This document shows, piece after piece, positions 4,755 to 45,991 of a DNA stretch of 64,000 bases; the stretch's first letter is position 1, and each line of letters opens with the position of its first letter. This DNA comes from Patescibacteria group bacterium (GTDB lineage: Bacteria; Patescibacteriota; Minisyncoccia; Phycocordibacterales; CAIZLB01): positions 75,974-139,973 of the forward strand of contig JAZKIM010000004.1 of NCBI GenBank assembly GCA_040384865.1, read 5' to 3'. The notes under the pieces are model-generated. The model was not told where the DNA came from, did no database searches, and saw only the letters and a list, made by a program, of their open reading frames with translations. A program made the position numbers and the translations under genes.

Positions 4755-4755
4755 C

Positions 4756-6793: not shown

Positions 6794-6805
6794 TATGATT
6801 TTTAC

Positions 6806-10513: not shown

Positions 10514-10543
10514 AAAAGTTTTTAGATATGCTTAAATAGGGGC

Positions 10544-11491: not shown

Positions 11492-11923
11492 ATGTATAAT
11501 CATAAATATATGTCATTACGAGTGCGATTTGCGGTAATAATGGTTTTAATCCTCGTGCTCTTTTGTCTAGATCTGGTTGCTACTAAATTCTACTTATACT
11601 GGTCTTTCGAATGGTTAGACAATTTGATGCATGTGTTTGGAGGATTCCTTGCCGGGAATATGGTACTCATTGGCAGGCAAGTGGTTGCAAGAAAAAAAGG
11701 AGAGGATGAAATATCAAAGAAAAGTTTATTTTTCGTAGCAATTCTCGGCGGACTACTGGTCGGCACGTTATGGGAGTTGATTGAATATTTGTTCGGTGTC
11801 TCTCATTTAGGACCTCGTTTTGTTTGGGATACGTTCGTTGATTTGATCATGGATATGGTCGGCGCAGCTTCCGCATATATTACTTGGATAAAGATACCTC
11901 ATAAACCTTATACAACAGCATAA
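11492..11923 (+). CDS. Hypothetical small membrane protein
   Basis: 143 aa, 3-4 predicted TM helices; stop overlaps the next start (TAATG). Confidence 0.45.
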   Translation: MYNHKYMSLRVRFAVIMVLILVLFCLDLVATKFYLYWSFEWLDNLMHVFGGFLAGNMVLIGRQVVARKKGEDEISKKSLFFVAILGGLLVGTLWELIEYLFGVSHLGPRFVWDTFVDLIMDMVGAASAYITWIKIPHKPYTTA

Positions 11924-13392: not shown

Positions 13393-13522
13393 ATAATTGA
13401 CTTTTAATTTTAGGATTTTTTGAGTGAAATCTTATTGTTCAACAGTATTATTGAAAGTGACATGATCCGGTAACTTCATGTCCATATTTTTTAAAATTAT
13501 GATTAGATGATATGGTAAACAT

Positions 13523-14206: not shown

Positions 14207-14257
14207 ACAAGGTTTATTCCACAAGGGAGAATTCTCTCTGCATGTTATAATCCTCAT

Positions 14258-15235
14258 ATGAATATTTACGTTACACGCCAAATTCCGCAGATCGGAATCG
14301 ATATGTTAAAAAATAAAGGCTATACAGTCGATGTTGGCACCGACAGAGAGCCTCCTTCAAAGCGTCGTTTGATGAAAATGATTTCGAAGAAGCCGTACGA
14401 TGCCATTCTTACACTTCTTACTGATCCTGTAGATAATGAATTTTTACAGGCAGCAGGTCCTCAACTCAAAGTTGTCTCAAATTATGCTGTTGGTTTTAAT
14501 AATTTTAATGTAAAGGATGCGGCCGATCGTAATGTGGTGTTGACTAACACTGTTGGTGTTTCCAGTGACTGTGTTGCCGAACACTCTCTTGCTTTGATGC
14601 TCGCATTGACTACTCGGATTACTGAAGCTGATCAGTTTATGAAAAAGGGAAAGTACAAAGGATGGGACCCTATGCTTCTTATAGGTACTGACCTTTGCGG
14701 TAAGACTATCGGGCTTGTCGGGGCCGGGCATATTGGATCACGAGTTGCCATGCACTTAGTTAAAGGTTTTGAGTGTAAGGTTCTTTATTACGATGTAAAG
14801 CGAAACGAAGATGTTGAAAAGCAAGGTGCTATTTTTGTCGAAAAACTTGAAGATGTTTTGGCACAGGCAGATATTGTAAGTCTCCATGTCCCGCTTTTAC
14901 CAAGCACTCAGCATCTAATGAATGAGGCGCGATTAAAAATGATGAAGCCGACAGCTTTTCTCATCAACACATCAAGAGGTCCTGTAGTAGATGAAAAAGC
15001 TCTTGTTGCAGCACTTCAAAAGGGCACCATTAAAGGCGCTGGCCTCGATGTTTATGAAGATGAGCCGAATCTTGCCCGAGGCTTGATTAAATTGTCAAAC
15101 GTTGTACTCACACCACATATTGCTTCAGCCCGCGAAAGCGCACGAAATGATATGGCAATAGCTGCCGCGCAGAATATTATAGATGTTCTTGAGGGAAGAG
15201 AACCAAAAGGTAAAATTCAAACACCAACAGCTTAG
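14258..15235 (+). CDS. D-isomer-specific 2-hydroxyacid dehydrogenase (glyoxylate/hydroxypyruvate reductase-like)
   Basis: GLVGAGHIGSRVA NAD-binding Rossmann motif; catalytic R/E/H arrangement; 325 aa. Confidence 0.85.
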   Translation: MNIYVTRQIPQIGIDMLKNKGYTVDVGTDREPPSKRRLMKMISKKPYDAILTLLTDPVDNEFLQAAGPQLKVVSNYAVGFNNFNVKDAADRNVVLTNTVGVSSDCVAEHSLALMLALTTRITEADQFMKKGKYKGWDPMLLIGTDLCGKTIGLVGAGHIGSRVAMHLVKGFECKVLYYDVKRNEDVEKQGAIFVEKLEDVLAQADIVSLHVPLLPSTQHLMNEARLKMMKPTAFLINTSRGPVVDEKALVAALQKGTIKGAGLDVYEDEPNLARGLIKLSNVVLTPHIASARESARNDMAIAAAQNIIDVLEGREPKGKIQTPTA

Positions 15236-15256
15236 CGTCATGTTATCATTATCTCA

Positions 15257-15922
15257 ATGCCAAAATTTAATCTGCATAATAACAATAAGCATAATCATTT
15301 GATACATAAGATCGGCGTATCCGGAGCGGCTGATATTGCCTTTTTGGGGCCTGAAGCTCTGGAAATAGCTAAAGAGCTTGGAAGGGAAATAGCTCGCCAA
15401 GATGTTGTCATGCTTTCAGGAGCAACTACCGGATTTCCTTTTTGGGCTGCTGTAGGTTGCAAAGAAGAAAATGGCGTTTCTATCGGCTTTTCTCCAGCTG
15501 AAGGTCCTCGCGAACATCAGGAGGTCTACCGCCTTCCTGTCGACTACATGGATCTCATCATCTATACCGGCTTTGGGTATAACGGGCGAGATCTTTTGTT
15601 TACACGATCAACCGATGCTGTCGTCATTGGTCCAGGACGTATTGGTACCATCCATGAATTCACCATTGCATATGAAGACGGTAAGCCGATCGGCATTTTA
15701 GAAGGGGAGGGTAAATGGCAGACAGACGAAGTGATCAGGACAATTCTTGAAAAGAGTCATCGGATAAATAAAAAGATTGTGTTTGATAAGGACCCAAAGA
15801 ATCTCATTGCAAAGCTGAAGAAGATGATAGATGAAGACAAAAAACTTTTACGTACATATGAAAATGTAGAGCAAGGCACTGCGATAGACGCTCCTGTAAA
15901 GAGCCGTGATCGTATTCTATAA
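15257..15922 (+). CDS. TIGR00725/LOG-like Rossmann-fold protein
   Basis: SGATTGFPFWAAVGC ... AVVIGPGRIGTIHE motifs resembling the LOG/SLOG-type fold. Confidence 0.45.
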   Translation: MPKFNLHNNNKHNHLIHKIGVSGAADIAFLGPEALEIAKELGREIARQDVVMLSGATTGFPFWAAVGCKEENGVSIGFSPAEGPREHQEVYRLPVDYMDLIIYTGFGYNGRDLLFTRSTDAVVIGPGRIGTIHEFTIAYEDGKPIGILEGEGKWQTDEVIRTILEKSHRINKKIVFDKDPKNLIAKLKKMIDEDKKLLRTYENVEQGTAIDAPVKSRDRIL

Positions 15923-15923
15923 A

Positions 15924-15958
15924 ACAAAAATACCACCGTTGGGTGGTATTTTTGTTTT
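15924..15958. terminator. Bidirectional rho-independent terminator
   Basis: AAATACCACC-gttg-GGTGGTATTT flanked by A- and T-tracts, between convergent genes. Confidence 0.65.
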
Positions 15959-15960
15959 GG

Positions 15961-16305
15961 TTACATTACTGACTTAACGATTCTTTCGAATGAAGCCGGA
16001 ACATTCATCGCGAGATCTGCGAGGATCTTTCGGTCTACCTCGATATTCTTCTTTTTGAGAGCGCCGATGAAGGTGCTGTAAGAGTGACCGAGAGGGCGGA
16101 GCGCTGCGTTGATGCGGACGTTCCATAATCGTCGGAAGTCACCTTTCTTGTCTCGTCGGTGGCTGAATGCTGCCGCATATGAATGAACAAGTTGTTCATA
16201 AGCTAATCGCTCCTTGTTCTTTCGGCCGTTTCGAAAACCTTTAGCTGCCTTTAATATGTTTCGTCGTGTCTTTGCGGCGTGAACGCCTTTTTTTACTCGT
16301 ACCAT
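15961..16305 (-). CDS. rplT: 50S ribosomal protein L20
   Basis: MVRVKKGVHAAKTRRNILKAAKGFRN... canonical L20. Confidence 0.95.
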   Translation of the reverse strand: MVRVKKGVHAAKTRRNILKAAKGFRNGRKNKERLAYEQLVHSYAAAFSHRRDKKGDFRRLWNVRINAALRPLGHSYSTFIGALKKKNIEVDRKILADLAMNVPASFERIVKSVM

Positions 16306-16334
16306 GGGAGTTGGAAATTAAAAGTTATAAAGAA

Positions 16335-16526
16335 TTATTTAGAAACGCCAGACAAGAATCGTGACTTATCCTTGTTTGTCATTTTAAATGGCATGCTTCG
16401 ACTTTTTGCGATCTGCTTTCGTCCGCTTTCCTTTGCATTAAAGTGGTTCTGACCAGCTTTTCTTGAAGTGACCTTTCCATTCTTGCTCACTTTCAAGCGC
16501 TTTGCGAATGATTTGTTTGTTTTCAT
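16335..16526 (-). CDS. rpmI: 50S ribosomal protein L35
   Basis: 63 aa basic protein MKTNKSFAKRLKVSKNGKV...; infC-rpmI-rplT order. Confidence 0.9.
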   Translation of the reverse strand: MKTNKSFAKRLKVSKNGKVTSRKAGQNHFNAKESGRKQIAKSRSMPFKMTNKDKSRFLSGVSK

Positions 16527-16610
16527 GTGTTTTACGCGAGGCGCCGTCTCTTTAGGACGGTCTTACGCATCTGCCTTGTTGTTTAACTTATAAATTTTGA
16601 GCTTCCTGTC

Positions 16611-17123
16611 TTATGCTTTCTCAATAAGAATTGTCATACCTTTTGGGCTCTTAACAGCAGGACCGGCGACATTGTAGTCGACAGTTAGCAACTTAAGGAG
16701 ACGGTCCATTCGCTCTCTGAGAAACTTCTCATCGAGGTATTTGGTTCGGCCGGGGAGGAAAAGGTCCATCTTGATTCGATGGCCTTCCGTGAGCCATTCT
16801 GAAGCTTTTTTAGCCTTCAAAGTGAGATCATGCTCGCCGGTACCGATTTTAACCTGGAGACTCTTGACTTCGACAACCTTCGCCTTAGATTTTGAGGCCT
16901 TTAGCTTCTTGTTCTCGTCGTACTGGAATTTACCATAATCCATGATTTTTGCAACCGGTGGATTGGCTTTTGGCGATATTTCTATGAGGTCTAGTCCGGC
17001 TTCTCGGGCACGAGAAAGGGCCTCCGAGATGGAGATGACGCCTATGTTTTCACCCTCGGCACCGATGACTCGGACCTCAGGGACTCTAATTTGATGGTTG
17101 ATGCGGACTGAAGGGATCGACAA
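16611..17123 (-). CDS. infC: Translation initiation factor IF-3 (non-AUG, apparently TTG start)
   Basis: RINHQIRVPEVRVIGAEGENIGVIS aligns to the IF3 N-domain; the first codon of the ORF is TTG (plus strand caa at 17121-17123); no in-frame ATG near the N-terminus. Confidence 0.9.
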   Translation of the reverse strand: MSIPSVRINHQIRVPEVRVIGAEGENIGVISISEALSRAREAGLDLIEISPKANPPVAKIMDYGKFQYDENKKLKASKSKAKVVEVKSLQVKIGTGEHDLTLKAKKASEWLTEGHRIKMDLFLPGRTKYLDEKFLRERMDRLLKLLTVDYNVAGPAVKSPKGMTILIEKA

Positions 17124-17177
17124 TGTGGTGTAATTTAGTGAGGTTAATATAGCATAAAAACAACTTTTTTCAAGTTT

Positions 17178-18287
17178 TTACAAAAACTTCCTTATCGGCC
17201 AAACCAAAAGTTCTAAAAATTGTGAAAGGTACGAACGCTTTTGCCATTGAGCGAAGGTGAGCTCGTCGGCGTTTTGAATATCATTCATGAAATGTCCGGC
17301 TACTTCACTAGCGAAGTGGTGATTGGATGCAACGATCCCTGATTCAAAATTGTACCGAAGACTGATATTGTCGAGATTGAGGGATCCAACCATTGCCCAA
17401 TTACCATCAATGACGGCTGTTTTCGAGTGAATCATCCCGCGATAGCGGTAAAGACGGATGCCCGCAGTGAGTACTCTGTGAAAATATGTGTGTGAGCCGC
17501 GATCTACCACAGGGTGATCAGAGTTTGTTGGTATGATGATGCGCACATCGACGCCTCGTCTTCGCGCAGCTACCAATGTTCGAAGCAGCCGTCTGTCAGG
17601 AAGAAAATATGGAGTAGTCAGGAATACATATGTCTGTGCATGACGAATTGTTTCGATCAGTCGACGATAGAGATGTCGTTGGCGGGGAAGAGGAGATTGA
17701 GTCAGGAAGGTAAATCCTTCAAGGTTCGTTTTTGCACCATCGCCCATGCCTAAGCTTTTCTTATGGGCTTTTTTCCAAATGAGTTCAAATGGAGATTGCA
17801 TTTGAACGATAATATTACCAGTTATTTCCAGTGTTGTTTCGCGCCAATACCTTACCCAGTCAACGATACAAACTCCGCCAGTGAAGGCTGTTTTCATGTC
17901 GACGATCAGTGTGCGGCGATGATCTCGGAAATACCAGATGCGTTTGTTTCCTTTTGAAAAGGGAAATATCCAGTTGAAAAAACGAACTTCGATGCCTGCT
18001 TGTTCCATTGCTTCGATGTACATTGATTGCCCGAGAGCAACACTACCCATAGCGTCTACTAACAATCGGACCCTTACACCGGCCTCTGCGCGTTCGATCA
18101 GGGCTTCAATGAATCGTTTTCCAATGTTGTCAGGGGCGAGATTGAATTGCTCTAAATCGATACTTGTTTGTGCATTGCGAATTGCCGAGATCATTGCTTC
18201 CCATGCGTGATGGGTGGTTGTATAGAATTTCCATGTGGTTTCTGGAGTGTTTGGCAACATACTGTAAGTGTACAAGAAATTTGCCAA
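17178..18287 (-). CDS. cls: Phospholipase D-family cardiolipin synthase
   Basis: Two HKD-type motifs (e.g. HSKTAVIDGNWAMVGSLNLD); 369 aa. Confidence 0.8.
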   Translation of the reverse strand: MANFLYTYSMLPNTPETTWKFYTTTHHAWEAMISAIRNAQTSIDLEQFNLAPDNIGKRFIEALIERAEAGVRVRLLVDAMGSVALGQSMYIEAMEQAGIEVRFFNWIFPFSKGNKRIWYFRDHRRTLIVDMKTAFTGGVCIVDWVRYWRETTLEITGNIIVQMQSPFELIWKKAHKKSLGMGDGAKTNLEGFTFLTQSPLPRQRHLYRRLIETIRHAQTYVFLTTPYFLPDRRLLRTLVAARRRGVDVRIIIPTNSDHPVVDRGSHTYFHRVLTAGIRLYRYRGMIHSKTAVIDGNWAMVGSLNLDNISLRYNFESGIVASNHHFASEVAGHFMNDIQNADELTFAQWQKRSYLSQFLELLVWPIRKFL

Positions 18288-27366: not shown

Positions 27367-28203
27367 CTACTTTTTTGCCTCGTTGAGGCCGACGATGAAC
27401 TTGGTCATCTCCTCGAGTTGTTTGGAGGTTGTTCGACAACCGGCGAAGGCTTGGCTTTCTGGATTGCCAAATCCTTTGCCACCACCCCATCCGTCGAACT
27501 TTTCCTTCACAGCCTTGCAGATGTCGCCAGGCCCGAAGTAATTGAGTTCGTAGGGAACGTCGTCGTAGGCATCGCTTTCCAGGTACATGTCGAGTTCGCC
27601 TTCGTGGGCAAGCGTCAGACAACGCACCAGAAGGTTTTCTTTACCGTTCGGCCAGGTCTGAAAAAGACGATCGGTAACCGGTGAGCACTTGTTGCTGTAA
27701 CGCAGGTTGACGATGACGACACCACCGCGTTCCACGCGATTGGAGATGCTGTGTTCAGCTTCCTCCTCCATTTGATTCGTCACACCCTGCGCTTGGCGGT
27801 CGGCGAGACGGATTCCGTAAATTTCGTCGTCGGTTGCCCCCATTTCAAGCATTGCAGGAATGTAGCCAGAATCATTCGCGGCGACGAGTTCATCGTGCCG
27901 AAAAGGTTTCACTCCGATCCATTTTAGGACCTGCAGGATCGAGGCGGGTTCGCCAGAGCGATTGCCGTGGTGATTAATGTCGCCGACGGGTTCACAGAGC
28001 TGAGTGTCAAACTCGAGTTCGACGCAGACTGGCGTGATCCCTTGCTGCAATGCCTCGTCGATCTCAGAGGCATAATCCGAAGTCTTGGCGCCCCAGTCGA
28101 GGCCTTTGTCTGCGAAGGGAATGCTGTGTTCCTGCAGTCGCTGACGGATGGTCAGCATTTCGAGGTCATGGCCTCCCAAGAAGAACATGTATTTCATTTT
28201 CAA
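27367..28203 (-). CDS. Hypothetical protein, GC-rich (possibly a metal-dependent hydrolase; unassigned)
   Basis: 278 aa, longest ORF in a ~55% GC segment; N-terminal YMFFLGGHDLEM and later INHHGN motifs. Antisense ORFs at 27289-27684 and 27967-28350 are considered by-products of the high GC. Confidence 0.5.
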   Translation of the reverse strand: MKMKYMFFLGGHDLEMLTIRQRLQEHSIPFADKGLDWGAKTSDYASEIDEALQQGITPVCVELEFDTQLCEPVGDINHHGNRSGEPASILQVLKWIGVKPFRHDELVAANDSGYIPAMLEMGATDDEIYGIRLADRQAQGVTNQMEEEAEHSISNRVERGGVVIVNLRYSNKCSPVTDRLFQTWPNGKENLLVRCLTLAHEGELDMYLESDAYDDVPYELNYFGPGDICKAVKEKFDGWGGGKGFGNPESQAFAGCRTTSKQLEEMTKFIVGLNEAKK

Positions 28204-28368: not shown

Positions 28369-29370
28369 ATGGATATTAAATTTAAGGGAAAAATTGAGAG
28401 TTTAATAGCGGAAATAAAGAGTAGATACGATTTACGTTTTATTGATATTGGTTTAGAAAAAGGTGCAAAGTTCTATATTTTTGGAGGAGTACTTCGAGAT
28501 ATGATTTTGGATAAACCATGGAAAGAGATTGACGTTCGAGTTTTTATAAACGAACCATATCCAAAGAGAGATGATGTGATGGAACAGATATTAAGCGAGG
28601 CAGGTATTAATATTTCTTCAAAAATCCCTTTTGGTGAATCATTTACTGTATATAGATTTGTTCCACCTAATAGTAAGTCTAAGGTAGATATTGATCTTAG
28701 TGTTATAAGTAAAGACTTTTCTGTCGGCCCTGATTTTACGATTAATGGATTATATTTGGATTTTGTAACTCATGAATTAATTGATCCACATAATGCTATT
28801 CAAGCTATAGAAGAAAAAGTTATCAAGACGGCGCTGGAGCCAATACAACAATTTAAGAATGAACCCTGGATGATATTCAGAGCTGTTAAAGCGGCGTGTC
28901 AATTTGATTTTAATATAGAGCAAAAAACATTGCAGGGGATGAAAGTCAATGCATCACTTGCAGAAGGAATGATGCAATCAATCGTTGATAAGAGTATGGG
29001 AGGAATGACAGAATGGCTCCTTGGAAACATGCTTCGAGGTCTTAAATATAACGCAAAGAAATTTGTTGATATTTGGAATGAGACCGGGATTACCCTTATT
29101 TTTGTAAAGTTTATTGCGAAGAATTATGGGAGTACCTCGAATGACATTAAAATTACGAATCCTTTTGTGTTGGGGAGACATGACGGTTTTGAAGATAACT
29201 TAAATATATTTTTCAGTGAGGTATCAGTTGCTGTAGATAAAGAAAATCCTGAAAAAGTATTCCGCAAGATATTAGATTTGTTCGAAATAGATAAGCCGAA
29301 ACAGTTTGAGGATTTTATAATCGATCCTTCGAAGCTGAGGTTTATTAAAAATATAGATATTTTGGTTTGA
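28369..29370 (+). CDS. Pol-beta superfamily nucleotidyltransferase with PolyA_pol/CCA-type head domain
   Basis: IFGGVLRDMILDKPWKEIDVRVF = GG-x-[VL]RD ... [DE]h[DE] motif of class II CCA-adding/poly(A) polymerase heads; 333 aa, AT-rich. Confidence 0.55.
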   Translation: MDIKFKGKIESLIAEIKSRYDLRFIDIGLEKGAKFYIFGGVLRDMILDKPWKEIDVRVFINEPYPKRDDVMEQILSEAGINISSKIPFGESFTVYRFVPPNSKSKVDIDLSVISKDFSVGPDFTINGLYLDFVTHELIDPHNAIQAIEEKVIKTALEPIQQFKNEPWMIFRAVKAACQFDFNIEQKTLQGMKVNASLAEGMMQSIVDKSMGGMTEWLLGNMLRGLKYNAKKFVDIWNETGITLIFVKFIAKNYGSTSNDIKITNPFVLGRHDGFEDNLNIFFSEVSVAVDKENPEKVFRKILDLFEIDKPKQFEDFIIDPSKLRFIKNIDILV

Positions 29371-29441: not shown

Positions 29442-29987
29442 TTAAACTTTGAGTGCGGCCTGATCGAGTAGATTGATGAGCGCACTTCTCGCAAAGCCCC
29501 ATGTAGAGGCTAGTTCGTCGAAGTGGTACACGATTCTGTTTCCACGAGGATCAAAGTGTCCATCGGGGCAGCTTCGCAGGTCATCCATTGATTGCTCTGC
29601 GCGGAGTCCAAAGTAATCCCAACCTTTGAATGTTTGCAGCAGGGCAACCTTGAATTTACCGCTCAACATCTTGTACATGAGACAGACTGCTTGATAATTT
29701 TTTGCTCGTGGAGAGGGGCAGTCCGTTGTGATATCGAACGCAGCGACGGGAGTGAGATTGACCCACGCCTCATCGTCAAAGAGTTCAATGCGTGCCAATT
29801 TACCGACTCTAATCTTTCTCATTTGGAATAAATTGTTGTGCTGGATTTCCAGCGGGGTTTGTGTGCTTTGTTTGGCGGTATGATACCGAAAAAGGCTCTG
29901 TTTGACAACTCTTAAAAGTCCTTGTACTTTAAGGTCAGATTTCCGAATCGATAATTCAAAACCAAACCTCAACCGGAACCTTACCAA
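29442..29987 (-). CDS. Hypothetical protein (GC-rich, uncertain ORF; TTG start as drawn)
   Basis: 181 aa ORF in the GC-rich block, diverging from the radical-SAM gene; no motif recognised. Confidence 0.3.
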   Translation of the reverse strand: MVRFRLRFGFELSIRKSDLKVQGLLRVVKQSLFRYHTAKQSTQTPLEIQHNNLFQMRKIRVGKLARIELFDDEAWVNLTPVAAFDITTDCPSPRAKNYQAVCLMYKMLSGKFKVALLQTFKGWDYFGLRAEQSMDDLRSCPDGHFDPRGNRIVYHFDELASTWGFARSALINLLDQAALKV

Positions 29988-31831
29988 TGAAATATTCCCT
30001 CATCGCGCCACTTATGGTGGCGCTCCTCATTAAGCTGGAAGTCTTGGAAACACTTCCTGACTTTTCGTCCTGGTCTGACCCGACAAAGGTCCGCTGGAGC
30101 GAAGAACAGAACACCTACCTCGACCATTCTTTGGAAGGGGAACACTGGGCGCTTTGCGCAATCTTGTCCAGCGGCAAGCGGATGTCGGAACCGACAAAGG
30201 TTCCGATGAAAAAGTCACTTGCACTGACAATCCGCACCGACCTCTTTTATCGCAAGACCACTTATATTGCGGTAACCATGCTCGGTATGGTGCGTTCGAT
30301 CGAACGCAAACAGTCGCGGCGACTCGTACTCGTGAATGTTGAGCAGATGCTTAACGAACAGGCCGGTGATCTACAGCAATATCGCGTATGGCCACACCTC
30401 GGCCTCATCTTCGTCGGCACAGTTGCCGACGAAGAAGGGTACGAAGTCGTCATCTGGGACGAATACGCTAAAGGCAATGTGCCTTTGGAAAAACTCGTTC
30501 AGGAAGGCGACATCGTCGGCCTCAGTCTCGTTGTCACCGGAATGGATCGCGGTATGATGCTCGCACGCCGGGCCAAAGAACTTGGCGCAGCCTGTGTCAT
30601 CGCCGGGAATGACTCGGCGATCTTCCGTGCTAACCAGGTGATGGCTCAAAATGATCGACCGATCGACGCGGTCTTCACGACAAACAGTCTGACCGCGGTC
30701 AGGCAGTTTCTGCGAGAAATTGGCAGAACGCCGATCGAAGAGCTCGACATCCCAGGTGTTCAGATGACAGCGCGTGGCGAAGTGCGTTCAAACGAACGTG
30801 ATCAACTGCTCATCGAACAAGAAGCTCGAAAGAGCAGCGAGTTCAATAGTGACGACGTGTTCGTTGTGCCGAAGTTGGAGCTCTACCCGCACTGGGAAGA
30901 GCTATGGACTAACTACCGCGCGACCTTCGGTCACAAGCACTCGAACCCGAAGACGGTGAAGAATGCAATTTCTCTCTTTGCCCAAGGGTGTACTCGCACC
31001 CGCGGTAGTGATGTGTGTCTTTACTGCACCATCGCCGGCGTCGCAGATTTGCGTACGCCGTCGGAAGAAATTGTTCGACGCACCATTGAAGCGTACGATA
31101 AGTTCGGTATCGACATGCTCTACAACGCGACAGATAGCGTTTATGAAATGGCGAAAGTCGTGAGTCAGCTCCAGAGGCTCGGTGCTTCGTGGAAGTCGAT
31201 GACGATCTACGGCCGAGCACAAGGTATCGCTCGTGCCCCACACCTCATTGAAGAATGGCAAAAAGTTGCGACGGAGCGACTACTCGTTAACGTCGGAATG
31301 GATTCCGGCAGTGACGAGATTCTTCATAAGGGGATCGTTAAATCTTCGACTGATGTGCTGGGCAGCCGTCTTGCTGAAAACCGAAACGCGGTGAAGTACA
31401 TTCGACAGTCTGGTGCGCATCTGCACTACTCACTCATCTTCGGTTCACCTGGAGAGACACTCGAAACGTGCGAAAGTAGCATCGAGTTTCTCGAATGGAC
31501 GATCGAGGTTCTTGGTAGTCAGCTCGACATCTGCGAGACCGACGTCTTCTGGCTGAACTTCGGTTCGCCGGCAAGCCGGATATTCCGTGAGTATGCGTTC
31601 GCCGTGTACCTTGCGAGTCTCGCGGGGAAGACAATCGAGCGCGATGAGTGGCAGCGGGATTTTGCGCAGTATGCTAACGAACTTGTTGTGCCACAGTCAG
31701 TGGAGGAGTCGTGGTATCGCCACTTCACCAACATCGAGTACGAGACGGCGCAGTTGTTCAATCAGCGTGCGGCCGAGATCATGTCGCGACACACGGGGAG
31801 TATTAGGGGGCGAGCCTTTAGGCCTGCCTAA
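29987..31831 (+). CDS. Cobalamin-binding-domain radical-SAM-like enzyme (class B rSAM-like, non-canonical Cys spacing)
   Basis: 614 aa. The N-terminal half resembles a B12-binding Rossmann domain (GLIFVGTVADEEGYEVVIWDE ... VGLSLVVTG ... CVIAGNDSAI). The central AQGCTRTRGSDVCLYCT motif gives C-x8-C-x2-C spacing, followed by a NVGMDSGSDEIL (GxESGS-like) motif. Confidence 0.5.
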   Translation: MKYSLIAPLMVALLIKLEVLETLPDFSSWSDPTKVRWSEEQNTYLDHSLEGEHWALCAILSSGKRMSEPTKVPMKKSLALTIRTDLFYRKTTYIAVTMLGMVRSIERKQSRRLVLVNVEQMLNEQAGDLQQYRVWPHLGLIFVGTVADEEGYEVVIWDEYAKGNVPLEKLVQEGDIVGLSLVVTGMDRGMMLARRAKELGAACVIAGNDSAIFRANQVMAQNDRPIDAVFTTNSLTAVRQFLREIGRTPIEELDIPGVQMTARGEVRSNERDQLLIEQEARKSSEFNSDDVFVVPKLELYPHWEELWTNYRATFGHKHSNPKTVKNAISLFAQGCTRTRGSDVCLYCTIAGVADLRTPSEEIVRRTIEAYDKFGIDMLYNATDSVYEMAKVVSQLQRLGASWKSMTIYGRAQGIARAPHLIEEWQKVATERLLVNVGMDSGSDEILHKGIVKSSTDVLGSRLAENRNAVKYIRQSGAHLHYSLIFGSPGETLETCESSIEFLEWTIEVLGSQLDICETDVFWLNFGSPASRIFREYAFAVYLASLAGKTIERDEWQRDFAQYANELVVPQSVEESWYRHFTNIEYETAQLFNQRAAEIMSRHTGSIRGRAFRPA

Positions 31832-31925
31832 GAGGACAAGCTCCTTAGAAAACAGCGGGGCCTTCAACGAAAGTTGGAGGTCCTGTTTTTATATAAAAAC
31901 GCAGCCACCCCTTTCAGGATGGCCG

Positions 31926-32780
31926 CTATGTTTTTTGCCCCTCAGACTTCACAACCCAACGGCTGAGGTAGCCGGTCGCAATGAGTGCGACTATGACCCC
32001 ACCCCACTGAAGTGGTGATAGTTTCTCACCGAGCAGTATTCCCGCGACGATGATCACCGCAAGGGTTTCACCTTGAGCAAGGACGCTTGCCACTTCGACG
32101 GGCAAATTGTCGAAGGCGACGAGATTTGCCAGCCAGTAGAGGAAACCACCGACGAAGGCAAAGGCGATGATCGCCAACCGCAGTTCAGCGTTTTCGTTGA
32201 CTGCCGACCAGGAAGCGTCGAGACTTCCGATGACTCCGATTGTGCCAATGCCGACTGATCCCCAAAAGCATCGATGCATCGAGGATGACTTTGCCCGTAC
32301 GATCAGCTCGTACAGGATACCGTTCGTGGCGGTAGCGAGGAGACTCCAGAGCAATCCGGTCATATTGAAGTTTCCGTTCCAGCGGGCGGCGATGATACCG
32401 CTCAGCATAAGACAGAAACAAATGATCGGCGCAGTGGAAACCTTTTTGCCAAAGATCCAGGCAATGAAGAAGTTCACTGCCGGAGTCGTTGCGATGATGA
32501 TAATCGTTGGTCCCGCGCCCCACTCGCGAATGCCTTTGAATAGGCCGAGTGATGCGAAGGGGACGCAGAGCGCGATCAAGTACGTGTACTTGTCGGTGGT
32601 TGCGACCCGTCCGCGCAGGAGTAGGAACGCGAGAATGGCGGTGAGCCAGCCGCGCATTGCGAGCAACTGTTCGGGTGTTTGTGACTTCAGTACATTGACG
32701 AAAGGAAGGGCAAGCCCCGCTGTTAGCCAAATACCGATGACTCCGAGGAGCCCGAGAGAGACATGGTGTTTGGGGCGCAC
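31926..32780 (-). CDS. EamA/DMT-superfamily transporter
   Basis: 284 aa with ~10 TM helices in two repeated halves; GC-rich. Confidence 0.65.
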   Translation of the reverse strand: MRPKHHVSLGLLGVIGIWLTAGLALPFVNVLKSQTPEQLLAMRGWLTAILAFLLLRGRVATTDKYTYLIALCVPFASLGLFKGIREWGAGPTIIIIATTPAVNFFIAWIFGKKVSTAPIICFCLMLSGIIAARWNGNFNMTGLLWSLLATATNGILYELIVRAKSSSMHRCFWGSVGIGTIGVIGSLDASWSAVNENAELRLAIIAFAFVGGFLYWLANLVAFDNLPVEVASVLAQGETLAVIIVAGILLGEKLSPLQWGGVIVALIATGYLSRWVVKSEGQKT

Positions 32781-32965: not shown

Positions 32966-33826
32966 ATGACAAGTCACGAATCTATAAATCGTTTTGATGT
33001 GGGTGATAACGGAGAGATAAGAGAAAGACTCTCTATAATTCAAGAGTCAGTGAGAGAAATTCAAGAAACTTATCCAGAGGTTGTCGGTTTCCTCATGTTT
33101 GGTTCAATGGTAAAAGGTTATGCAACTGAAGAAAGTGATATCGATGGAAGAATCATAATTGATGTAGAGCAGATTCATGATAAAAATTCTAATACAGTGA
33201 CTGTTATAGGGTGGAGGTCATTAAAAAATGATGCCGGTGCCTTATCAGTAAAAGAAAGAGGATTGAGCCCTTCTAGTATTCACGCCCGCTTTGAAGACGC
33301 CACAAAGAAAAGATATGAAGATTTGATAAAAGATAAATTTAAGTTGGGTATATCAAAATTAAGTGATGAACAGGTTAGACACATAGAAGCTTTACCTATA
33401 TCTTTCGAAGCTCTCGATAAAATATTAAAGATTTGGAGAGATAATGTTGCGGAGTTCAAGGCGATAGAGGATGCGGATAAAAAGATCAGGAAAAAGCATA
33501 AAAAAGAAGAACTGTCTGATGAGGATATGGCTTTTTTGATGCGAGAGAAGAGTTTTAAACTTCCAGAAAAAAACATACAGGCTTCAGAATATCTTTCGCA
33601 ACTATTCTTTTTAAGTGTCGGTTCGAGTAATATTCGTCCTTACCGTGCCTATATTATTAAGAAGCTTTTTTCTTACGGAGAAATTGGGAAAGAAATGTGG
33701 ACACATATTATTAGCTATACAGAAATTATGGAAAGAAGGCTGGTGGATGAAGAGAAAAAAGAAGGTGAGGCTCTCAGCGTAAAATATCCCAGAACACTGG
33801 AAGATGCGAAGTATATTTATGGTTAA
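32966..33826 (+). CDS. Pol-beta superfamily nucleotidyltransferase (minimal NTase / CD-NTase-like fold)
   Basis: FGSMVKGYATEESDIDGRI = G[GS]-x10-DxD nucleotidyltransferase signature; 286 aa; AT-rich; immediately upstream of the 1219-aa ORF on the same strand. Confidence 0.55.
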   Translation: MTSHESINRFDVGDNGEIRERLSIIQESVREIQETYPEVVGFLMFGSMVKGYATEESDIDGRIIIDVEQIHDKNSNTVTVIGWRSLKNDAGALSVKERGLSPSSIHARFEDATKKRYEDLIKDKFKLGISKLSDEQVRHIEALPISFEALDKILKIWRDNVAEFKAIEDADKKIRKKHKKEELSDEDMAFLMREKSFKLPEKNIQASEYLSQLFFLSVGSSNIRPYRAYIIKKLFSYGEIGKEMWTHIISYTEIMERRLVDEEKKEGEALSVKYPRTLEDAKYIYG

Positions 33827-34038: not shown

Positions 34039-37000
34039 ATGCGGTATCATATAACCTATAATATGCCTGAAAGAGTTAAATTGCATAAAGAGAATGTTGA
34101 ACCTGTCGAAGGTCAGCCTATCGGAAAAAATGAGGATGTTATTGTCGATTCTGTAGAAGTAGAATCCTTACGTGAAGCGAAAGTGTTGAAGGAAAAAATT
34201 CACAAGCTCCATATTGAGGCAGAGATGATCAAATTAAATATTGCGAACCTAACTTCTGGATACGAAGGTAAGGGTGATTCAGAAGGAGGAAATGATCAAG
34301 ATCCTGAGATGCCCCAGCAAAAGGCCGAGGATCTTTTGAAAAAGGTAGATGGGCTTTTTGATACAAAAGGTAAAAAGCCAAATACTGATTTAAGTCCAGA
34401 GGATTTTATAAAACAAGCCACAAGTATTCTTCCGCAGTTGGATGTAGCGTATAGCTACTATCTGTTTAAAAAAGAACAACTAGACAAAAGAGAGCAGGTT
34501 TTAGTTTTAGAAATAAAAGAAGCCGAGAAACATATTGTAAATAGAGCCTCGTTTAAAGATAAGGCATTAAACTTTCTTTCTGATAAAAAAGCTAAAAATA
34601 AGTTGGATCAGCTAAGAAAAGAAAAAAATGACGTTGGTCTTGATAGTTTTCATACTTATAACCACAGGAACGCTGTGTATGCAAAAAGAAGATCTTTGAT
34701 AGAGAATACAAGTGAGGTTCTTTCAGGGCAAGTTGCAACGAGCATTCAAAAATTAGCTGTGGAGTATTTTGATTTATTTAATTCCTCTCCAGAAATAACA
34801 GCATTGCAAAAGACAGCAATAATTGAATATGTGCGTTCACAGCTTCAGGAGGATGATCCACACGATGTAATGGATGAAGTTACCAATTCCGCTTCTGATT
34901 TGATTGAAAGCAGGAGATCTTCAAGAGAGGACTTTGTATCTCATAAATTATATAAGACAGGTGATAGAAAAGATTTATCTGGCCCTTTATACTACGCCCT
35001 CATGCGCATTGAAAGCTCTGGCGCTGATAAGTATGTTATTCAAAGGATCGTTGGATTTGATTTTGGAAAAAAAGTTGAGGAAATTTGTGAACCATTAAGA
35101 TGGGCTCGCGTAAGTTCTAGAGAAATAATTAATCAGTGTCGTGATATAAAGCAACTGGATCAAAAAGTAAGGGATTTCCTTTTTTCAATTAGTGGTGATT
35201 TATCCCATCACGATATCCTTAGAATATGGGAGACTGCGAGAGACAATAAAGCTTTTCAAGTAGCTTTTGGCAAAAGTATTCAGGAAATTAATACCGTAAC
35301 TCAAACCTGCCAAATAAATGACAAATTTTCACCTGATCACTTACCAAGAGATCTTTATCATAAATTAGTTTTAAACCTCCCACTCCATCAGTTTAATGCA
35401 GAGCTTGTTAAGGCCGTAAATGAAGGAAGGGTTACTGCAGAGGCTGTAATGAATATGCCAGATGAAATCCCTGATCTTTTGGATAACAGCGAAGGGCTAC
35501 TTGCACAAATGATGAAAGCTCCAGAGATTTTTCTTGCTTCTAAAGAAGCAGCATCATATTCAAGAGATCTGAAATCAAAATATGGAAAAAATACAGGAGC
35601 ATTAAGGGTCGCCATGTCATATCTTAAACCAAACAATACGCTGGAATCTAAAGATGCAATCTTGAAGCTGCCCAAAAAGTATCCTGGACTCATAAACACT
35701 GAAGAGAAAGAAAGTTCGAAGCTTTTGAGTCTTGTTTTTGAAAACCATGAAATATTCTTCCCACCAAGTGAACCCATCGCCCTTGCTAATAGAATAGGAG
35801 GGACGTATGGGATACAGGCGGAGAGAATTCTTAATGGATACATTGAGTGTGCTAAAGCCGGGGTTGTTTCAGGAGAACAAACAGCTATTGTTATAGAATT
35901 TTTAGAAAACTTCAGAGTAATTTCTCCGGCGATATTGAAAGGTTACATTGAAGCTAAAAAGCTTAATCAAGAAGAACTGTATATTGCGGAACTTAAGTCC
36001 GCTGCTGAAAAAATGGTTAGCTCTGAAATAATTTCTGAAGAACAAAGATCCAAAGAATACTACGATGATTTAATTAAGCACGTATATCCTAAAAACTCTG
36101 CAAACTTTGGTGGTTATGAGCAATCCAAGCTTTGTTCTGATAGATCAGCGGATTTAGAAAAATACAAAGTAAAAAAAAGATATGAAATAGACCTTTTTGC
36201 TTCGGGGCGAATCGATATGAAAGAGGGTGAAACTTTAAATGAAGAAAAAGTTGGAAAGGTTAAGAACGACATCCTTGCGATCCAAAGAATTTTTGAATCG
36301 GTTGAATATGACCCTGCGAAAATGATTGAACTAGTTGAGGCGAGAATAAATGAATTGTACGTCGGAGAAAATGCTGAGCTAGGAAGAGAAGAAAAACTCT
36401 TCATAATATTGGCAGAAACACTTTATGGGAATTCATCTTTAGATAGAGATATGGTAAAGCAACTGGTTGTAACTTATGAATTTGCTTTAAATGAGGACGT
36501 AAGAGATTACATAAAGGGAACTAGTGATCGAGTTGCTTCAGCATCAAATAAGGATTATGCCCTGTTGTGTGAATTAAATGAATTTTATAACGACCGAATT
36601 AAGGAGGTTTACAGAAGAATCACGGAAAAAGCGTATGTTTCAGAGCATATACAGCAGGCAATGCCTCGATACTTTGAAATGTTGGTGCAACAAAAAGAGC
36701 AGGGTAGAAGTAAGGAATCTATCGATAAACTTCAGCTTGATAAGCTCGGTATGTCTCCGGGATTTATATCACAAATAAAAAAGGCTTTAAAAAAGAGAAA
36801 TGGAAAGGAATATACAGATGAACAAGTAAAGAAAATTATATCCGCATATGAAAGAGTAGCGGGTGGTTTAACAGGAAAGAAATCGGAGTCCAGGAAATCG
36901 GGAACACAAGCGATTTACGGACAGTTAAAATCTCAAAGGGATAAAACTCGCAACGCTGTTAAAGAATTGACAGGCGAAGAGATTAATCCCGAGGAGCTTT

Positions 37001-37698
37001 TCTTGTCTAACGTTAACTTCGAACAATTACTTCAAAGCGAGAGATCTATATCTAGTGGCGTATATAACCAAGATCAATTTGCAGCGTATACAGTAGAGAA
37101 TTTAATAGGACTTTTTGATGATGAGCAAACTATAATTTCTGGAGAATTGGATAAATTCCAATCTGAGTCTGGAAATTCACGGAAGGTTCTCAATGCTTTT
37201 ATAACTAAGAATAAAGAAAGTGCCAACGCTCGAATGACAGGAGGTGTGTGTGTTGCAGCAGATAATCCTAGCAAGGATAGGAAGGTGGATAATATCTGGG
37301 ATATGGAAAACTATTTCCAAATGGTTTTTCAAGATCCAGAAAGCTTAATGTGTACAGGTCTCGTACTTTTGCATGCCGAAGAGCATAATGGTGAAAATAT
37401 ATTGTGTGCGTCACTCAATCCCTCAAGTACATATCTATACACCGTGGATGAAAGAGCCCTGTTTGAAGGAATTATGAAGTCACTTGAAACATTTGCCAAT
37501 GAAAATAACTTCTCAAAGATTGCTGTTGCGCACAATAAGGCAATTCGAACAAATAGAACGGGAGGGGAATTTGAAAAAGCTTTGGATGCACGAATAGCTG
37601 CGCAGAATGTATCAATCAACTTTGATCCACCAAAAACCTTTTCTTTCAATCCTGCGTATGTAATGACAGGGGTAAATGTTGTTTGGCAGAATAATTAG
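34039..37698 (+). CDS. Very large hypothetical protein (1219 aa), helical, K/E-rich, no recognisable catalytic motif
   Basis: Single uninterrupted ORF with native-like AT-rich composition; a strong terminator follows. Confidence 0.6.
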   Translation: MRYHITYNMPERVKLHKENVEPVEGQPIGKNEDVIVDSVEVESLREAKVLKEKIHKLHIEAEMIKLNIANLTSGYEGKGDSEGGNDQDPEMPQQKAEDLLKKVDGLFDTKGKKPNTDLSPEDFIKQATSILPQLDVAYSYYLFKKEQLDKREQVLVLEIKEAEKHIVNRASFKDKALNFLSDKKAKNKLDQLRKEKNDVGLDSFHTYNHRNAVYAKRRSLIENTSEVLSGQVATSIQKLAVEYFDLFNSSPEITALQKTAIIEYVRSQLQEDDPHDVMDEVTNSASDLIESRRSSREDFVSHKLYKTGDRKDLSGPLYYALMRIESSGADKYVIQRIVGFDFGKKVEEICEPLRWARVSSREIINQCRDIKQLDQKVRDFLFSISGDLSHHDILRIWETARDNKAFQVAFGKSIQEINTVTQTCQINDKFSPDHLPRDLYHKLVLNLPLHQFNAELVKAVNEGRVTAEAVMNMPDEIPDLLDNSEGLLAQMMKAPEIFLASKEAASYSRDLKSKYGKNTGALRVAMSYLKPNNTLESKDAILKLPKKYPGLINTEEKESSKLLSLVFENHEIFFPPSEPIALANRIGGTYGIQAERILNGYIECAKAGVVSGEQTAIVIEFLENFRVISPAILKGYIEAKKLNQEELYIAELKSAAEKMVSSEIISEEQRSKEYYDDLIKHVYPKNSANFGGYEQSKLCSDRSADLEKYKVKKRYEIDLFASGRIDMKEGETLNEEKVGKVKNDILAIQRIFESVEYDPAKMIELVEARINELYVGENAELGREEKLFIILAETLYGNSSLDRDMVKQLVVTYEFALNEDVRDYIKGTSDRVASASNKDYALLCELNEFYNDRIKEVYRRITEKAYVSEHIQQAMPRYFEMLVQQKEQGRSKESIDKLQLDKLGMSPGFISQIKKALKKRNGKEYTDEQVKKIISAYERVAGGLTGKKSESRKSGTQAIYGQLKSQRDKTRNAVKELTGEEINPEELFLSNVNFEQLLQSERSISSGVYNQDQFAAYTVENLIGLFDDEQTIISGELDKFQSESGNSRKVLNAFITKNKESANARMTGGVCVAADNPSKDRKVDNIWDMENYFQMVFQDPESLMCTGLVLLHAEEHNGENILCASLNPSSTYLYTVDERALFEGIMKSLETFANENNFSKIAVAHNKAIRTNRTGGEFEKALDARIAAQNVSINFDPPKTFSFNPAYVMTGVNVVWQNN

Positions 37699-38664: not shown

Positions 38665-38792
38665 GGTGCATATTCCTTAAGCGAGGAATGGTTTGTGTTT
38701 TTTGGTTTTGGTGAGTGCCTTGCTAAAGGGCTACATAACTGGATTTGCTAATAACCCTACAGGTATGAAAATGGTTGTCAATTTTTTTAATT

Positions 38793-39209
38793 GTGGAGAT
38801 GCCGGGAATCGAACCCGGGTGCAAGTGAGTCTCTTAGATGAATCTACGCGGCGTAGAGGGTCTTTAGACCTGCCCGGAGGCAAGGTCATTTAAAGTTCGT
38901 TACTTTAAGACAATCAAAACATAACGAACCCGAGCTACTATGGTTTCGGTAGACGACCGTAGCAGATCGTTAACCTATTTTGGATATATACCACCGGCGC
39001 ACGTTCTCCAAAAATAAACGTGCGTGATGTCGCTAGGCAGGGAGCTTACGCTCGGGCTGTCGCGAAGGCAAAATCGTTCACCGCAAAATACGGTGAAGCG
39101 ACTTTAGCTTGTCGTGCGTTAGCACTTAAGGGTTCCGGCAGATTTACGAGTTACCGGAGCTCGGTCGCGCACATAAAAGAAATTTCACATGTCGAAGCCA
39201 ATCATCCCC
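38793..39209 (-). ncRNA. ssrA: tmRNA (SsrA), ~417 nt
   Basis: Minus-strand 5' end GGGGAUGAUUGGCUUCGACAUG matches the tmRNA 5' consensus (GGGG.UGA...UUCGAC). The 3' end has a T-arm CCGGG-UUCGAUU-CCCGG and an acceptor 3' strand CAUCUCC that pairs with the 5' GGGGAUG, including a G3·U70 wobble and an A73 discriminator (Ala identity). smpB lies immediately upstream. A candidate tag ORF reads ...GCG GUG AAC GAU UUU GCC UUC GCG ACA GCC CGA GCG UAA (AVNDFAFATARA*). Confidence 0.75.
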
Positions 39210-39217: not shown

Positions 39218-39664
39218 TTATTGATTTTTCAAAGTCCTCCTGATCTCGCGGTCAGAATCTCGCTTCTTGATCGTCTGACGCTTGTCGAAACGTTTCTTTC
39301 CGCGGGCAATACCTATTTCTATTTTAACCTTGCCCTTATTGTTGTACATGGAAATTGGCACTACTGTCAACCCCTTACCGGTTTCAATGTCTGCCAATTC
39401 CTTAATTTCTGATTTTTTGAGAAGTAATCGTCGGTTTCGTCCAGGTTCATAGCCCTTTGGTGTGTTATTCATCTGGAACGGAGGGATGGTGGCACCGGTG
39501 AGATATGCCTCGCCACCGCGGATTAATACATATGCACCTTCAAGTGAACCTTGGTGTGCTTTGACTGATTTGACCTCAAAACCAAAAAGCTCGATTCCAG
39601 CCTCATAGGCTTTTTTGATATCGTAGTTGAAGTGAGCTTTTTTGTTTTGTACGAATGTTGTCAT
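39218..39664 (-). CDS. smpB: SsrA-binding protein SmpB
   Basis: MTTFVQNKKAHFNYDIKKAYEAGIELFGFEVKS...GKGLTVVPISMYNNKGKVKIEIGIARGKKRFDKRQ, canonical SmpB; start set at the internal Met (ORF-track start 39748 is an upstream extension). Confidence 0.9.
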   Translation of the reverse strand: MTTFVQNKKAHFNYDIKKAYEAGIELFGFEVKSVKAHQGSLEGAYVLIRGGEAYLTGATIPPFQMNNTPKGYEPGRNRRLLLKKSEIKELADIETGKGLTVVPISMYNNKGKVKIEIGIARGKKRFDKRQTIKKRDSDREIRRTLKNQ

Positions 39665-39689
39665 GACGGGTGAAATGTAAAAGTATACA

Positions 39690-39741
39690 AAGTATAACAA
39701 ATGTAAAGCGCGCCGCTCGGAAGAATCCTTTGGCGGCGCGC
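39690..39741 (-). terminator. Rho-independent terminator (minus strand) between the 135-aa ORF and smpB
   Basis: GCGCGCCGC-loop-GCGGCGCGC 9-bp GC stem (39708-39741) followed on the minus strand by UUUACAUUUGUU. Confidence 0.6.
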
Positions 39742-39744
39742 GTT

Positions 39745-40152
39745 TCATTCACCGATGAACCGGAAGGATCTGGGTGAGAAGGCGAAGAGTCTTCGGGGAT
39801 CTCTCCGTAACCCTCCATTAAGCAGTAAGAATTCTGCTGCAATTAGCCTGTCTTCGAGGGCAAGGGTGACGATTACTTCTGCCATGAGCGCAAAGCGCGT
39901 ACCTTTTGGAAATTTGCTGACGTACGGTCGGTAGTGGCCATCACGTCGCATAAAGTCTTCAGGTTCAAAGTATGTTGCGAACCTTACTCCGAGGAAGTCT
40001 CCTGCCACGTGCCAGGGTAGGGGCGCTGAAAAACATTGTTTAGTTTGAGGAATCGCTATGATTTCAATCACCTTCCTTTCACCAAGGATATTGGTTCCTT
40101 CCATCCGAACCAAACCTTTTGTATTGAAAGCTTGGGGAACTATGTATGGCAT
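39745..40152 (-). CDS. Hypothetical protein
   Basis: 135 aa ORF; no recognisable motif; true start uncertain. Confidence 0.35.
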   Translation of the reverse strand: MPYIVPQAFNTKGLVRMEGTNILGERKVIEIIAIPQTKQCFSAPLPWHVAGDFLGVRFATYFEPEDFMRRDGHYRPYVSKFPKGTRFALMAEVIVTLALEDRLIAAEFLLLNGGLRRDPRRLFAFSPRSFRFIGE

Positions 40153-45848: not shown

Positions 45849-45915
45849 AGCTTGGTTTTAGGTCTTTAGGTAACAACTTGCCAATTTCTACCCACCTCGG
45901 TAGGTCTCACAATCT

Positions 45916-45991
45916 GGTGCGCGTGCCTGGACTCGAACCAGGGACCGCCAAGGTATAAGCTTGATGCTCTAACCAGCTGAGCTACACGCGC
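45916..45991 (-). tRNA. tRNA with anticodon UAU (Ile, AUA-reading), CCA encoded
   Basis: Minus-strand sequence GCGCGTGTAGCTCAGCTGGTTAGAGCATCAAGCTTATACCTTGGCGGTCCCTGGTTCGAGTCCAGGCACGCGCACCA folds as a cloverleaf: acceptor GCGCGTG/CACGCGC, D-arm GCTC..GAGC, anticodon stem TCAAG/CTTGG with loop CTTATAC, T-arm CCTGG-TTCGAGT-CCAGG. Confidence 0.7.

Follow-up and report, generated by a model that had tools for sequence, protein, structure and literature searches.

We analysed a stretch of 64,000 nucleotides from a Patescibacteria group bacterium (contig JAZKIM010000004.1, positions 75,974 to 139,973; this whole stretch is called the window below), with attention to a gene for a protein of 614 amino acids (aa) and to the EamA transporter gene beside it. 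The explanation that we favour, at a rough probability of 0.6, is that the first gene encodes a stand-alone radical-SAM enzyme (SAM, S-adenosylmethionine) of the class-B type, found only in the candidate phyla radiation (CPR), which works through an iron-sulphur cluster and SAM, belongs to a mobile family, and has EamA as its neighbour by coincidence. The parts of this explanation differ in strength. From sequence and model, it is very probable that the protein belongs to the radical-SAM superfamily that combines a Rossmann domain with a barrel, and that its cluster site is functional. The enzyme is predicted to perform SAM-dependent chemistry, most likely radical in kind, although for cobalamin use and radical rather than polar chemistry we would give even odds at best. 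The family itself is real and uncharacterised, a CPR-restricted variant of the B12-domain radical-SAM architecture. The protein is identical over its full length to V4664_02355, a "hypothetical protein" of Patescibacteria group bacterium in a metagenome-assembled genome (MAG) at NCBI, and no paper on the family was found in the literature on the motif and on CPR radical-SAM enzymes.

The gene and the parts of its product are as follows.

29987..31831 (+): gene for the 614-aa CPR-specific radical-SAM-like enzyme, the whole open reading frame (ORF) including the stop codon; AlphaFold2 model with a predicted local distance difference test (pLDDT) score of 92.3.
29987..30262 (+): N-terminal module, residues 1–92, a hydrophobic helix (residues 3–14) followed by a small beta-rich domain to about residue 88.
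30251..30307 (+): low-confidence linker, residues ~89–107, with pLDDT < 50 at residues 89–99 and 101–107.
30314..30721 (+): Rossmann-type (cobalamin-binding-like) domain, residues ~110–245, from Pfam, hhalign and fold matches to TsrM, MgmA and CysS.
30959..31561 (+): radical-SAM partial TIM-barrel core, residues ~325–525, from Pfam, six beta/alpha units in the AlphaFold2 model, and fold matches.
30989..31027 (+): loop C335-x8-C344-x2-C347 (CTRTRGSDVCLYC) with invariant cysteines, predicted to bind the cluster.
31289..31324 (+): NVGMDSGSDEIL, counterpart of the GxESGS motif of the SAM-binding strand, aligned with IGVESGS of OxsB via the outgroup described below.
31442..31471 (+): GSPGETLETC, the GxPGET motif and the invariant fourth cysteine C495, from translation and alignment.
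31568..31828 (+): C-terminal helical domain, residues 528–614, with helices at residues 528–601 in the AlphaFold2 model and the motif W576-Y-x2-F-T.

Three independent lines of evidence (Pfam matches across the family, a profile bridge through more distant relatives, and the predicted fold) establish homology to radical-SAM enzymes with a B12-binding domain. More than 200 homologue clusters, with proteins of about 615 aa that are 47–74% identical to that of the window, were found in CPR MAGs. The family is tight: an exhaustive profile search over 1.84 billion representatives gave 30 matches at E <= 1e-30, rising to just 846 at E <= 1e-3. At the latter threshold, 19 of 24 family members matched the Pfam Radical_SAM model (best E 1.7e-8) and 8 matched the B12-binding model, and a relative of the short form, P0127, passed the Radical_SAM cut-off with 37.6 bits. 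The next tier in the profile search consisted of proteins of about 500 aa, which served as an outgroup (P0143, P0146, P0152, P0165, P0170, P0172 and others); these are unnamed, known from metagenomes only, and the nearest relatives by profile. All six outgroup proteins that were scanned scored above the Radical_SAM gathering cut-off (33–55 bits), and five of the six above the B12-binding cut-off (32–42 bits overall; P0172 reached 31.9 against 32.1). When the family profile was aligned with the outgroup by hhalign, the probability was 100% (E 1e-49, 477 columns, 24% identity). The outgroup profile in turn reached OxsB across both domains in the PDB (E 5e-15), together with MgmA (9e-7) and the cobalamin domain of TokK (1e-5). 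Finally, an AlphaFold2 model built from 117 sequences, with a predicted TM-score of 0.81, was compared with the PDB by Foldseek. It matched TsrM (4e-15), AprD4 (1.5e-14), MgmA (1e-12), CysS (2e-10) and MiaB (6e-8) at about 15% identity; of the 30 chains at E <= 1e-3 most, among them all of the top 21, were radical-SAM enzymes. Homology to class-B-type enzymes, as in the original prediction, is thus supported.

By sequence and model, the layout is that of the class I B12-dependent radical-SAM enzymes (OxsB, TsrM, TokK, QCMT/MgmA, CysS), with a Rossmann domain, a partial TIM barrel and a C-terminal domain in this order. Shared with them are also the GxESGS-like and GxPGET motifs and the fold (E 4e-15 to 2e-10; OxsB E 5e-15 via the outgroup). 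In contrast to them, the window protein has only about 15% identity, a CX8CX2C instead of a CX3CX2C motif, GNDS and TSNS in its Rossmann domain, an orphan N-terminal module of about 90 aa and no biosynthetic gene cluster; it is restricted to CPR, and its cobalamin binding is putative. The cobalamin-binding-like Rossmann region had been predicted at the N-terminus; it is present, but begins only at about residue 110, after the extra module. Its invariant residues are G144, T145, D158, E159, G178, K197, G207-N208-D209 and D227. With the outgroup, which is likewise uncharacterised, the family shares an expanded cluster loop (CX6CX2C or CX8CX2C there) and the W-x3-FTH motif of the C-terminal domain. 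The outgroup differs in keeping GNDH and D-x-GE, in lacking both the N-terminal module and C495, and in passing the Pfam cut-offs, P0172 alone falling just short for B12-binding.

The window protein contains seven cysteines and a single CXnCX2C cluster, with n = 8, and GCTRTRGSDVCLYC translates from 30986–31027. In each of the 117 homologues there was one CXnCX2C motif, n was always 8, and C335, C344 and C347 were invariant; this is the triad that the original prediction described as the only clustered one. In the profile alignments it falls where the outgroup and OxsB have their cluster motifs, the loop of OxsB reading C-DYSR-C-TF-C, i.e. CX4CX2C. The cysteines are conserved among homologues, and the loop sits at the homologous position. 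The deviation from the canonical spacing is unusual, yet precedented. Expanded CXnCX2C loops with n = 4–11, CX8CX2C among them, have been catalogued in other radical-SAM clusters (PMC9477430). In the RadicalSAM.org collection, Megacluster-4-6 has CX8CX2C, 2-5 has CX7CX2C and 2-4-1 has CX11CX2C, with the same insertion between the first and second cysteines; the catalogued CX8CX2C clusters belong to Megacluster 4 and not to the B12-binding Megacluster 2-1 (PMC9477430). The predicted GxESGS-like motif was found as well: in NVGMDSG, part of NVGMDSGSDEIL, G437 was invariant, and N435, D439, S440 and G441 were conserved in at least 90% of sequences. In the GxPGET motif, G486 and E490 were invariant and G489 was conserved in at least 90%. 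A fourth cysteine, C495, was invariant in all 117 sequences and is specific to the family, since the outgroup has a leucine there; C516 was conserved in 62%.

On this basis, the following mechanism may be proposed. C335, C344 and C347 would ligate a [4Fe-4S] cluster, the five additional loop residues being an insertion that leaves the cluster geometry intact, and the NVGMDSG and GSPGET motifs would bind SAM. The reduced cluster would cleave SAM to give a 5'-deoxyadenosyl radical, which would attack a substrate positioned where barrel and Rossmann domain face each other. A cofactor probably sits in the strongly conserved Rossmann domain, and the default guess for it is cobalamin. Because this is a monocistronic gene without recurrent partners, the enzyme is best seen as self-sufficient, acting on a common or scavenged molecule; likelier substrates than the intermediate of some dedicated pathway would be a scavenged metabolite or a common molecule of the cell or its envelope.

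Several observations weigh against this explanation. No CPR genome is known to make cobalamin. The window protein scored below the curated cut-offs of both Pfam models named in the original prediction, with 19.8 bits for Radical_SAM (PF04055; residues 332–502; gathering cut-off 29.5) and 19.3 bits for B12-binding (PF02310; residues 134–230; cut-off 32.1), so that the single-sequence profile test, taken alone, would look negative; both models match below threshold, and superfamily membership is supported by the family, the bridge and the fold. In the NCBIfam scan no cut-off was reached, HpnJ, MJ_0865, PhpK, HpnR and the ladderane lipid radical-SAM model all being far below threshold; the top model was HpnJ, with 23 bits against a cut-off of 578, and no methylase model was reached. 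Searches of PDB sequences with the single protein and with the 117-sequence profile returned nothing significant. The canonical CX3CX2C after the first barrel strand is missing. The hydrophobic N-terminus resembles a signal or an anchor, which is hard to square with a cytoplasmic iron-sulphur enzyme. Cobalamin binding, like the binding of a cluster and the cleavage of SAM, is a prediction. Furthermore, two of the best structural matches depart from the expected chemistry: AprD4 does not bind cobalamin, and TsrM works without radical chemistry (PMC12931638). With these two among the best fold matches, the reaction may belong to any of several classes.

This last point leads to the strongest alternative, namely a cobalamin-independent enzyme of the AprD4/ArsL type, in which the Rossmann-like domain would be structural or would bind the substrate, and the reaction would be a dehydration, a rearrangement or the transfer of a 3-amino-3-carboxypropyl group, and not a methyl transfer. 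We regard it as possible, though clearly less likely than the reading we favour. AprD4, a radical-SAM 1,2-diol dehydratase (PDB 6FD2), has the same two-domain layout and was the second-best fold match, with the highest target-normalised TM-score (0.67, normalised to AprD4). It differs in belonging to an aminoglycoside cluster and in having a partner reductase (PMC12931638), for which the window gene has no equivalent cluster; identity is about 15%. The Rossmann motifs of the outgroup have been replaced in the family (GNDH by GNDS, D-x-GE by T-S-N-S), only 8 of 24 members reached the B12-binding model even at E 1e-3, and no riboswitch for cobalamin, or any other Rfam element, was detected near the gene, either in the window or at six other loci. 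In both AprD4 and ArsL-type enzymes a Rossmann-like domain is present but cobalamin is not, and base-off cobalamin binding in class B has no sequence signature (PMC12931638). For the same reason, however, the sequence does not argue against cobalamin either. In addition, few parts of the protein are as conserved as the Rossmann domain, where about 14 residues are invariant, and this suggests that a ligand is bound there. Cobalamin is bound by the top fold match, TsrM, and by most of the others (MgmA, CysS and, through the outgroup, OxsB).

Radical-SAM enzymes with B12-binding domains carry out methylation, ring contraction (OxsB), cyclisation (BchE), thioether formation and dehydration, sometimes without cobalamin (PMC12931638). 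A methyltransferase in an antibiotic or cofactor pathway had been proposed for the window gene. We found no support for this, as no biosynthetic neighbours recur and the architecture serves other chemistries too. At the other end, the family could be a mobile radical enzyme with a new chemistry, restricted to CPR and acting alone on a host-derived or envelope molecule that the symbionts cannot make. Its marks would be the obligatory eight-residue cluster loop, the family-specific C495 and the orphan N-terminal domain, and the GC excess at third codon positions, seen in dozens of genomes, would stem from ongoing exchange or gene conversion of an adaptive accessory gene among CPR. This reading as a whole we consider doubtful.

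Genomic context was examined at 38 species-representative loci and six others, by all-against-all clustering together with a census of Pfam families among the 128 nearest ORFs. With few exceptions among 39 loci, the enzyme gene stands about 100 bp or more away from the genes on either side, and these differ between genomes. The census gave seven TrmB-type regulators, four ABC ATPases, three Mur ligases and two EamA proteins, and no biosynthetic partner recurred at the 38 loci. The sole recurrent neighbour was a divergent TrmB-type winged-helix regulator, located 145–203 bp upstream of the gene at short-form loci (L030, L031, L036, L039, L044, L046), which suggests expression controlled by a ligand. 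At L046 a second TrmB gene lies downstream of the short-form enzyme. Two loci have a 219-aa nucleotidyltransferase of the NTP_transf_2/Pol-beta type next to the enzyme gene, downstream at L041 (11922–12581, +) and upstream at L007 (4455–5114, +); these are 44% identical to each other, and homology to the nucleotidyltransferases that flank the block in the window was not detected by BLAST. Neither the enzyme nor EamA matched any PADLOC model of a defence system.

The N-terminal module bears on another alternative, in which the enzyme is membrane-proximal: the N-terminal helix would tether the long form, and a scavenged lipid or cell-wall precursor would be modified, by analogy with HpnR, HpnJ and the ladderane-type class-B enzymes. 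We think this unlikely. The hydrophobic N-terminal segment is conserved in 104 full-length (long-form) homologues, with a mean maximum hydropathy of 2.10; two hopanoid enzymes, HpnJ and HpnR, as well as the enzyme for ladderane lipids are among the best weak NCBIfam similarities; and some loci adjoin FA_desaturase, CMAS or dcw/Mur genes. Against this, such neighbours were not recurrent (Mur ligases 3 of 128, FA_desaturase 1, CMAS 1), the NCBIfam similarities lie far below cut-off and include enzymes not acting on lipids, and the short-form subfamily (~505–545 aa, compared with ~600–635 aa for long forms) lacks the module entirely. The helix is well modelled and may be packed within a small domain instead of being free. 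Moreover, the second hydrophobic stretch is too weak to return the catalytic domain to the cytoplasm; the linker is only weakly hydrophobic (mean 0.82) and therefore unlikely to span a membrane. Modelled separately, the N-terminal module had a pLDDT of 87.6, and a fold search with it alone gave no PDB match (best E 0.48). It was always fused, since a Rosetta-stone test found no stand-alone ORF for it. Within its coding region there is an 18-nt direct repeat (89% identical; 30073–30090 and 30184–30201, 111 nt apart), which is probably a chance match.

Both genes had been described as GC-rich and foreign-like. The first part is correct: GC content reaches 0.539 in the enzyme gene and 0.556 in EamA, as against 0.418 for the rest of the window. 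The GC-rich block starts and stops sharply, near 29,400 and 32,800, and outside it lie AT-rich nucleotidyltransferase genes (0.30–0.37). The anomaly is hence real, but it is a property of the enzyme family and not specific to this genome. The enzyme gene was more GC-rich than its flanks at 35 of 38 loci (mean +7.6 points, Wilcoxon p = 3e-7), and it was the ORF with the highest GC among those of at least 150 aa at 19 of 30 loci. The regression slope was 0.53, and the fixed point that it implies lies near 0.61 GC. By codon position, at 33 loci, the excess was +13.0 points at the third position (GC3), +4.9 at the first and +3.0 at the second; since it is concentrated at third positions, amino-acid composition does not explain it. 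The EamA family behaves similarly, with GC above the flanks at four of four loci (L047–L050; +0.03 to +0.13) and raised GC3. The persistent GC3 excess may come from horizontal transfer out of GC-rich CPR lineages, from GC-biased conversion or from selection. An effect of conserved or highly expressed genes was considered and rejected: the enzyme gene lies well above DnaK, ribosomal proteins and tRNA synthetases of the same loci, none of which are GC-rich, and the excess is mainly in GC3. The idea of an extraordinary sequence conservation was dropped too, because the median pairwise identity is about 50%, similar to MraW and MurF and below DnaK.

All hosts with a clear or checked label were CPR, the "uncultured Gammaproteobacteria" third-party annotation (TPA) contigs L020, L026, L032 and L043 being left out of this count. 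One apparent exception, a "Candidatus Kapaibacterium" contig (L039, JBILHA010000002.1), proved to be mislabelled, as its PolA is 55–79% identical to Patescibacteria PolA. Since all homologues checked are in CPR genomes, no donor outside CPR is indicated, and "foreign" should be read as accessory and exchanged within CPR. Public labels conflict with the content on several contigs, and among the TPA MAGs with the gene several bear the label "uncultured Gammaproteobacteria" or "Saccharibacteria".

The family is accessory and mobile within CPR, and is at least sometimes carried on integrative islands, for which there is direct evidence in one MAG. This MAG, MBR_H10.111, has a genome of about 0.28 GC and contains two paralogues (L011 and L041), 59% identical, in blocks of intermediate GC. 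The L011 block (4500–17972) has a tRNA gene at its edge and two tyrosine integrases; the L041 block (1948–15400) has at its start a tRNA gene together with a large serine recombinase, and carries ThyX. Some incongruence between the gene and markers was also seen, with L008 nearest to L023 by DnaK, S11 and S13, yet closer to L012 and L018 by the enzyme. Hallmarks of an island were looked for in the window: the ORFs scanned near the two genes included no integrase, and there were neither flanking repeats nor a repeat of the 3' end of the tmRNA (transfer-messenger RNA). The L011 block additionally holds a SMODS (CBASS-like) gene, an SNase nuclease, a pair of helix-turn-helix/ImmA-like genes and a LOOT RNA (Rfam 76 bits, 12273–12390).

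The arrangement at the 3' end of the enzyme gene is as follows.

31854..31887 (+): terminator-like hairpin 3' of the radical-SAM gene, 15 pairs and a T-run.
31901..31926 (−): terminator-like hairpin 3' of the EamA gene, 11 pairs and a T-run.
31926..32780 (−): gene for an EamA/DMT (drug/metabolite) transporter of 284 aa, convergent with the enzyme gene; Pfam EamA 1.9e-13.

The convergent EamA/DMT neighbour was confirmed. Its protein is identical to an "EamA family transporter" of the same organism as V4664_02355. The spacer between the two genes is 94 bp and holds the two opposed hairpins, one per gene, both of them strong. The proposal that the two genes form an acquired cassette, with the enzyme altering a small metabolite (by methylation) and the transporter exporting the product, did not survive and appears quite improbable. 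It is true that the genes are adjacent in one GC-rich block with sharp edges, that an orthologous EamA (50% identical) lies directly beside the enzyme at L011, inside the integrase-bounded island, and that, at the level of Pfam families, EamA was among the four nearest neighbours at 2 of the 38 other loci, which is somewhat above our rough, uncomputed expectation from the few copies per genome. However, a search for the gene pair in other genomes found orthologue adjacency only at L011 besides the window, i.e. at 2 of 39 loci, and in different arrangements, downstream and convergent in the window, upstream and divergent at L011. EamA forms a CPR family of its own with more than 190 clusters, and no radical-SAM gene was present within 6 kb at any of the four sampled loci of its orthologues. 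The genes are convergent with separate terminators, and the window shows neither flanking repeats nor an integrase. Since the EamA family is GC-rich on its own (4 of 4 loci), the shared GC block needs no co-transfer, and the juxtaposition would be a coincidence of two independently GC-rich CPR accessory genes. EamA is, in all likelihood, not an obligate partner of the enzyme, and it is probably not functionally linked to it; there may be a weak association.

That the protein is a degenerate pseudoenzyme or regulator, whose expanded loop no longer binds a cluster, would fit the absence of CX3CX2C, the sub-threshold Pfam scores and the lack of a PDB sequence match, but is highly improbable in view of three cysteines with invariant spacing in 117 sequences and (nearly) invariant SAM-motif positions, which indicate purifying selection on a functional site, of expanded loops (n = 4–11) in other radical-SAM clusters (PMC9477430), and of the functional enzyme OxsB aligning with its CX4CX2C loop.

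The stand-alone enzyme that we favour matters in several respects. Metabolism in CPR/Patescibacteria is minimal, and a costly iron-sulphur/SAM enzyme, possibly dependent on cobalamin, that is kept and exchanged across lineages probably has a role in the symbiotic lifestyle. The invariant CX8CX2C provides a clear natural case for the limits of cluster-loop expansion within the B12-domain branch. No curated model names the family, so that annotation based on thresholds misses it. That an unrelated family, EamA, shares the GC3 excess suggests that accessory genes of distinct composition are general in CPR genomes, and such genes bear on the detection of horizontal transfer and on the quality control of MAGs. 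The family is cleanly defined, confined to an enigmatic lineage and marked by a family-wide composition anomaly; it is still one of many uncharacterised radical-SAM families.

The surroundings of the two genes were also surveyed. One further ORF lies within the GC-rich block.

29442..29822 (−): small divergent ORF, 126 aa from an ATG or 181 aa from a TTG, GC 0.49.

It had no Pfam or PADLOC match and no homologue at the 38 related loci, and whether it is a real gene is uncertain. The region from 27 to 38 kb of the window is a GC mosaic of accessory-looking genes. The GC-rich block is bracketed by AT-rich genes (0.33–0.37 GC) at 28369–29370 (+), 32966–33826 (+) and 34039–37698 (+), namely a PolyA_pol/CCA-like nucleotidyltransferase, a Pol-beta/MntA-like minimal nucleotidyltransferase with weak PADLOC PDC-S09 matches, and a 1219-aa protein without a family match. 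A separate ORF of 278 aa at 27367–28203 (−), with a GC of 0.54 and no Pfam match, gave strong PADLOC matches to "DHH_CorA" (E 2.5e-49), a DHH-family hydrolase associated with type III CRISPR/CorA systems, and to "C3a116" (E 6.7e-54). A tmRNA gene at 38791–39209 (−; Rfam 109.9 bits), with the tag peptide ANARQAKVASPYFAVNDFAFATARA, adjoins smpB at 39218–39748 (−); its 3' end points toward the mosaic region, where no duplicated att-like repeat or integrase was found. Lastly, isoleucine tRNAs with a UAU anticodon are uncommon in bacteria, in which AUA is usually read by a lysidine-modified CAU tRNA; the window carries a tRNA-Ile with the anticodon UAU (tat) at 45915–45991 (−).

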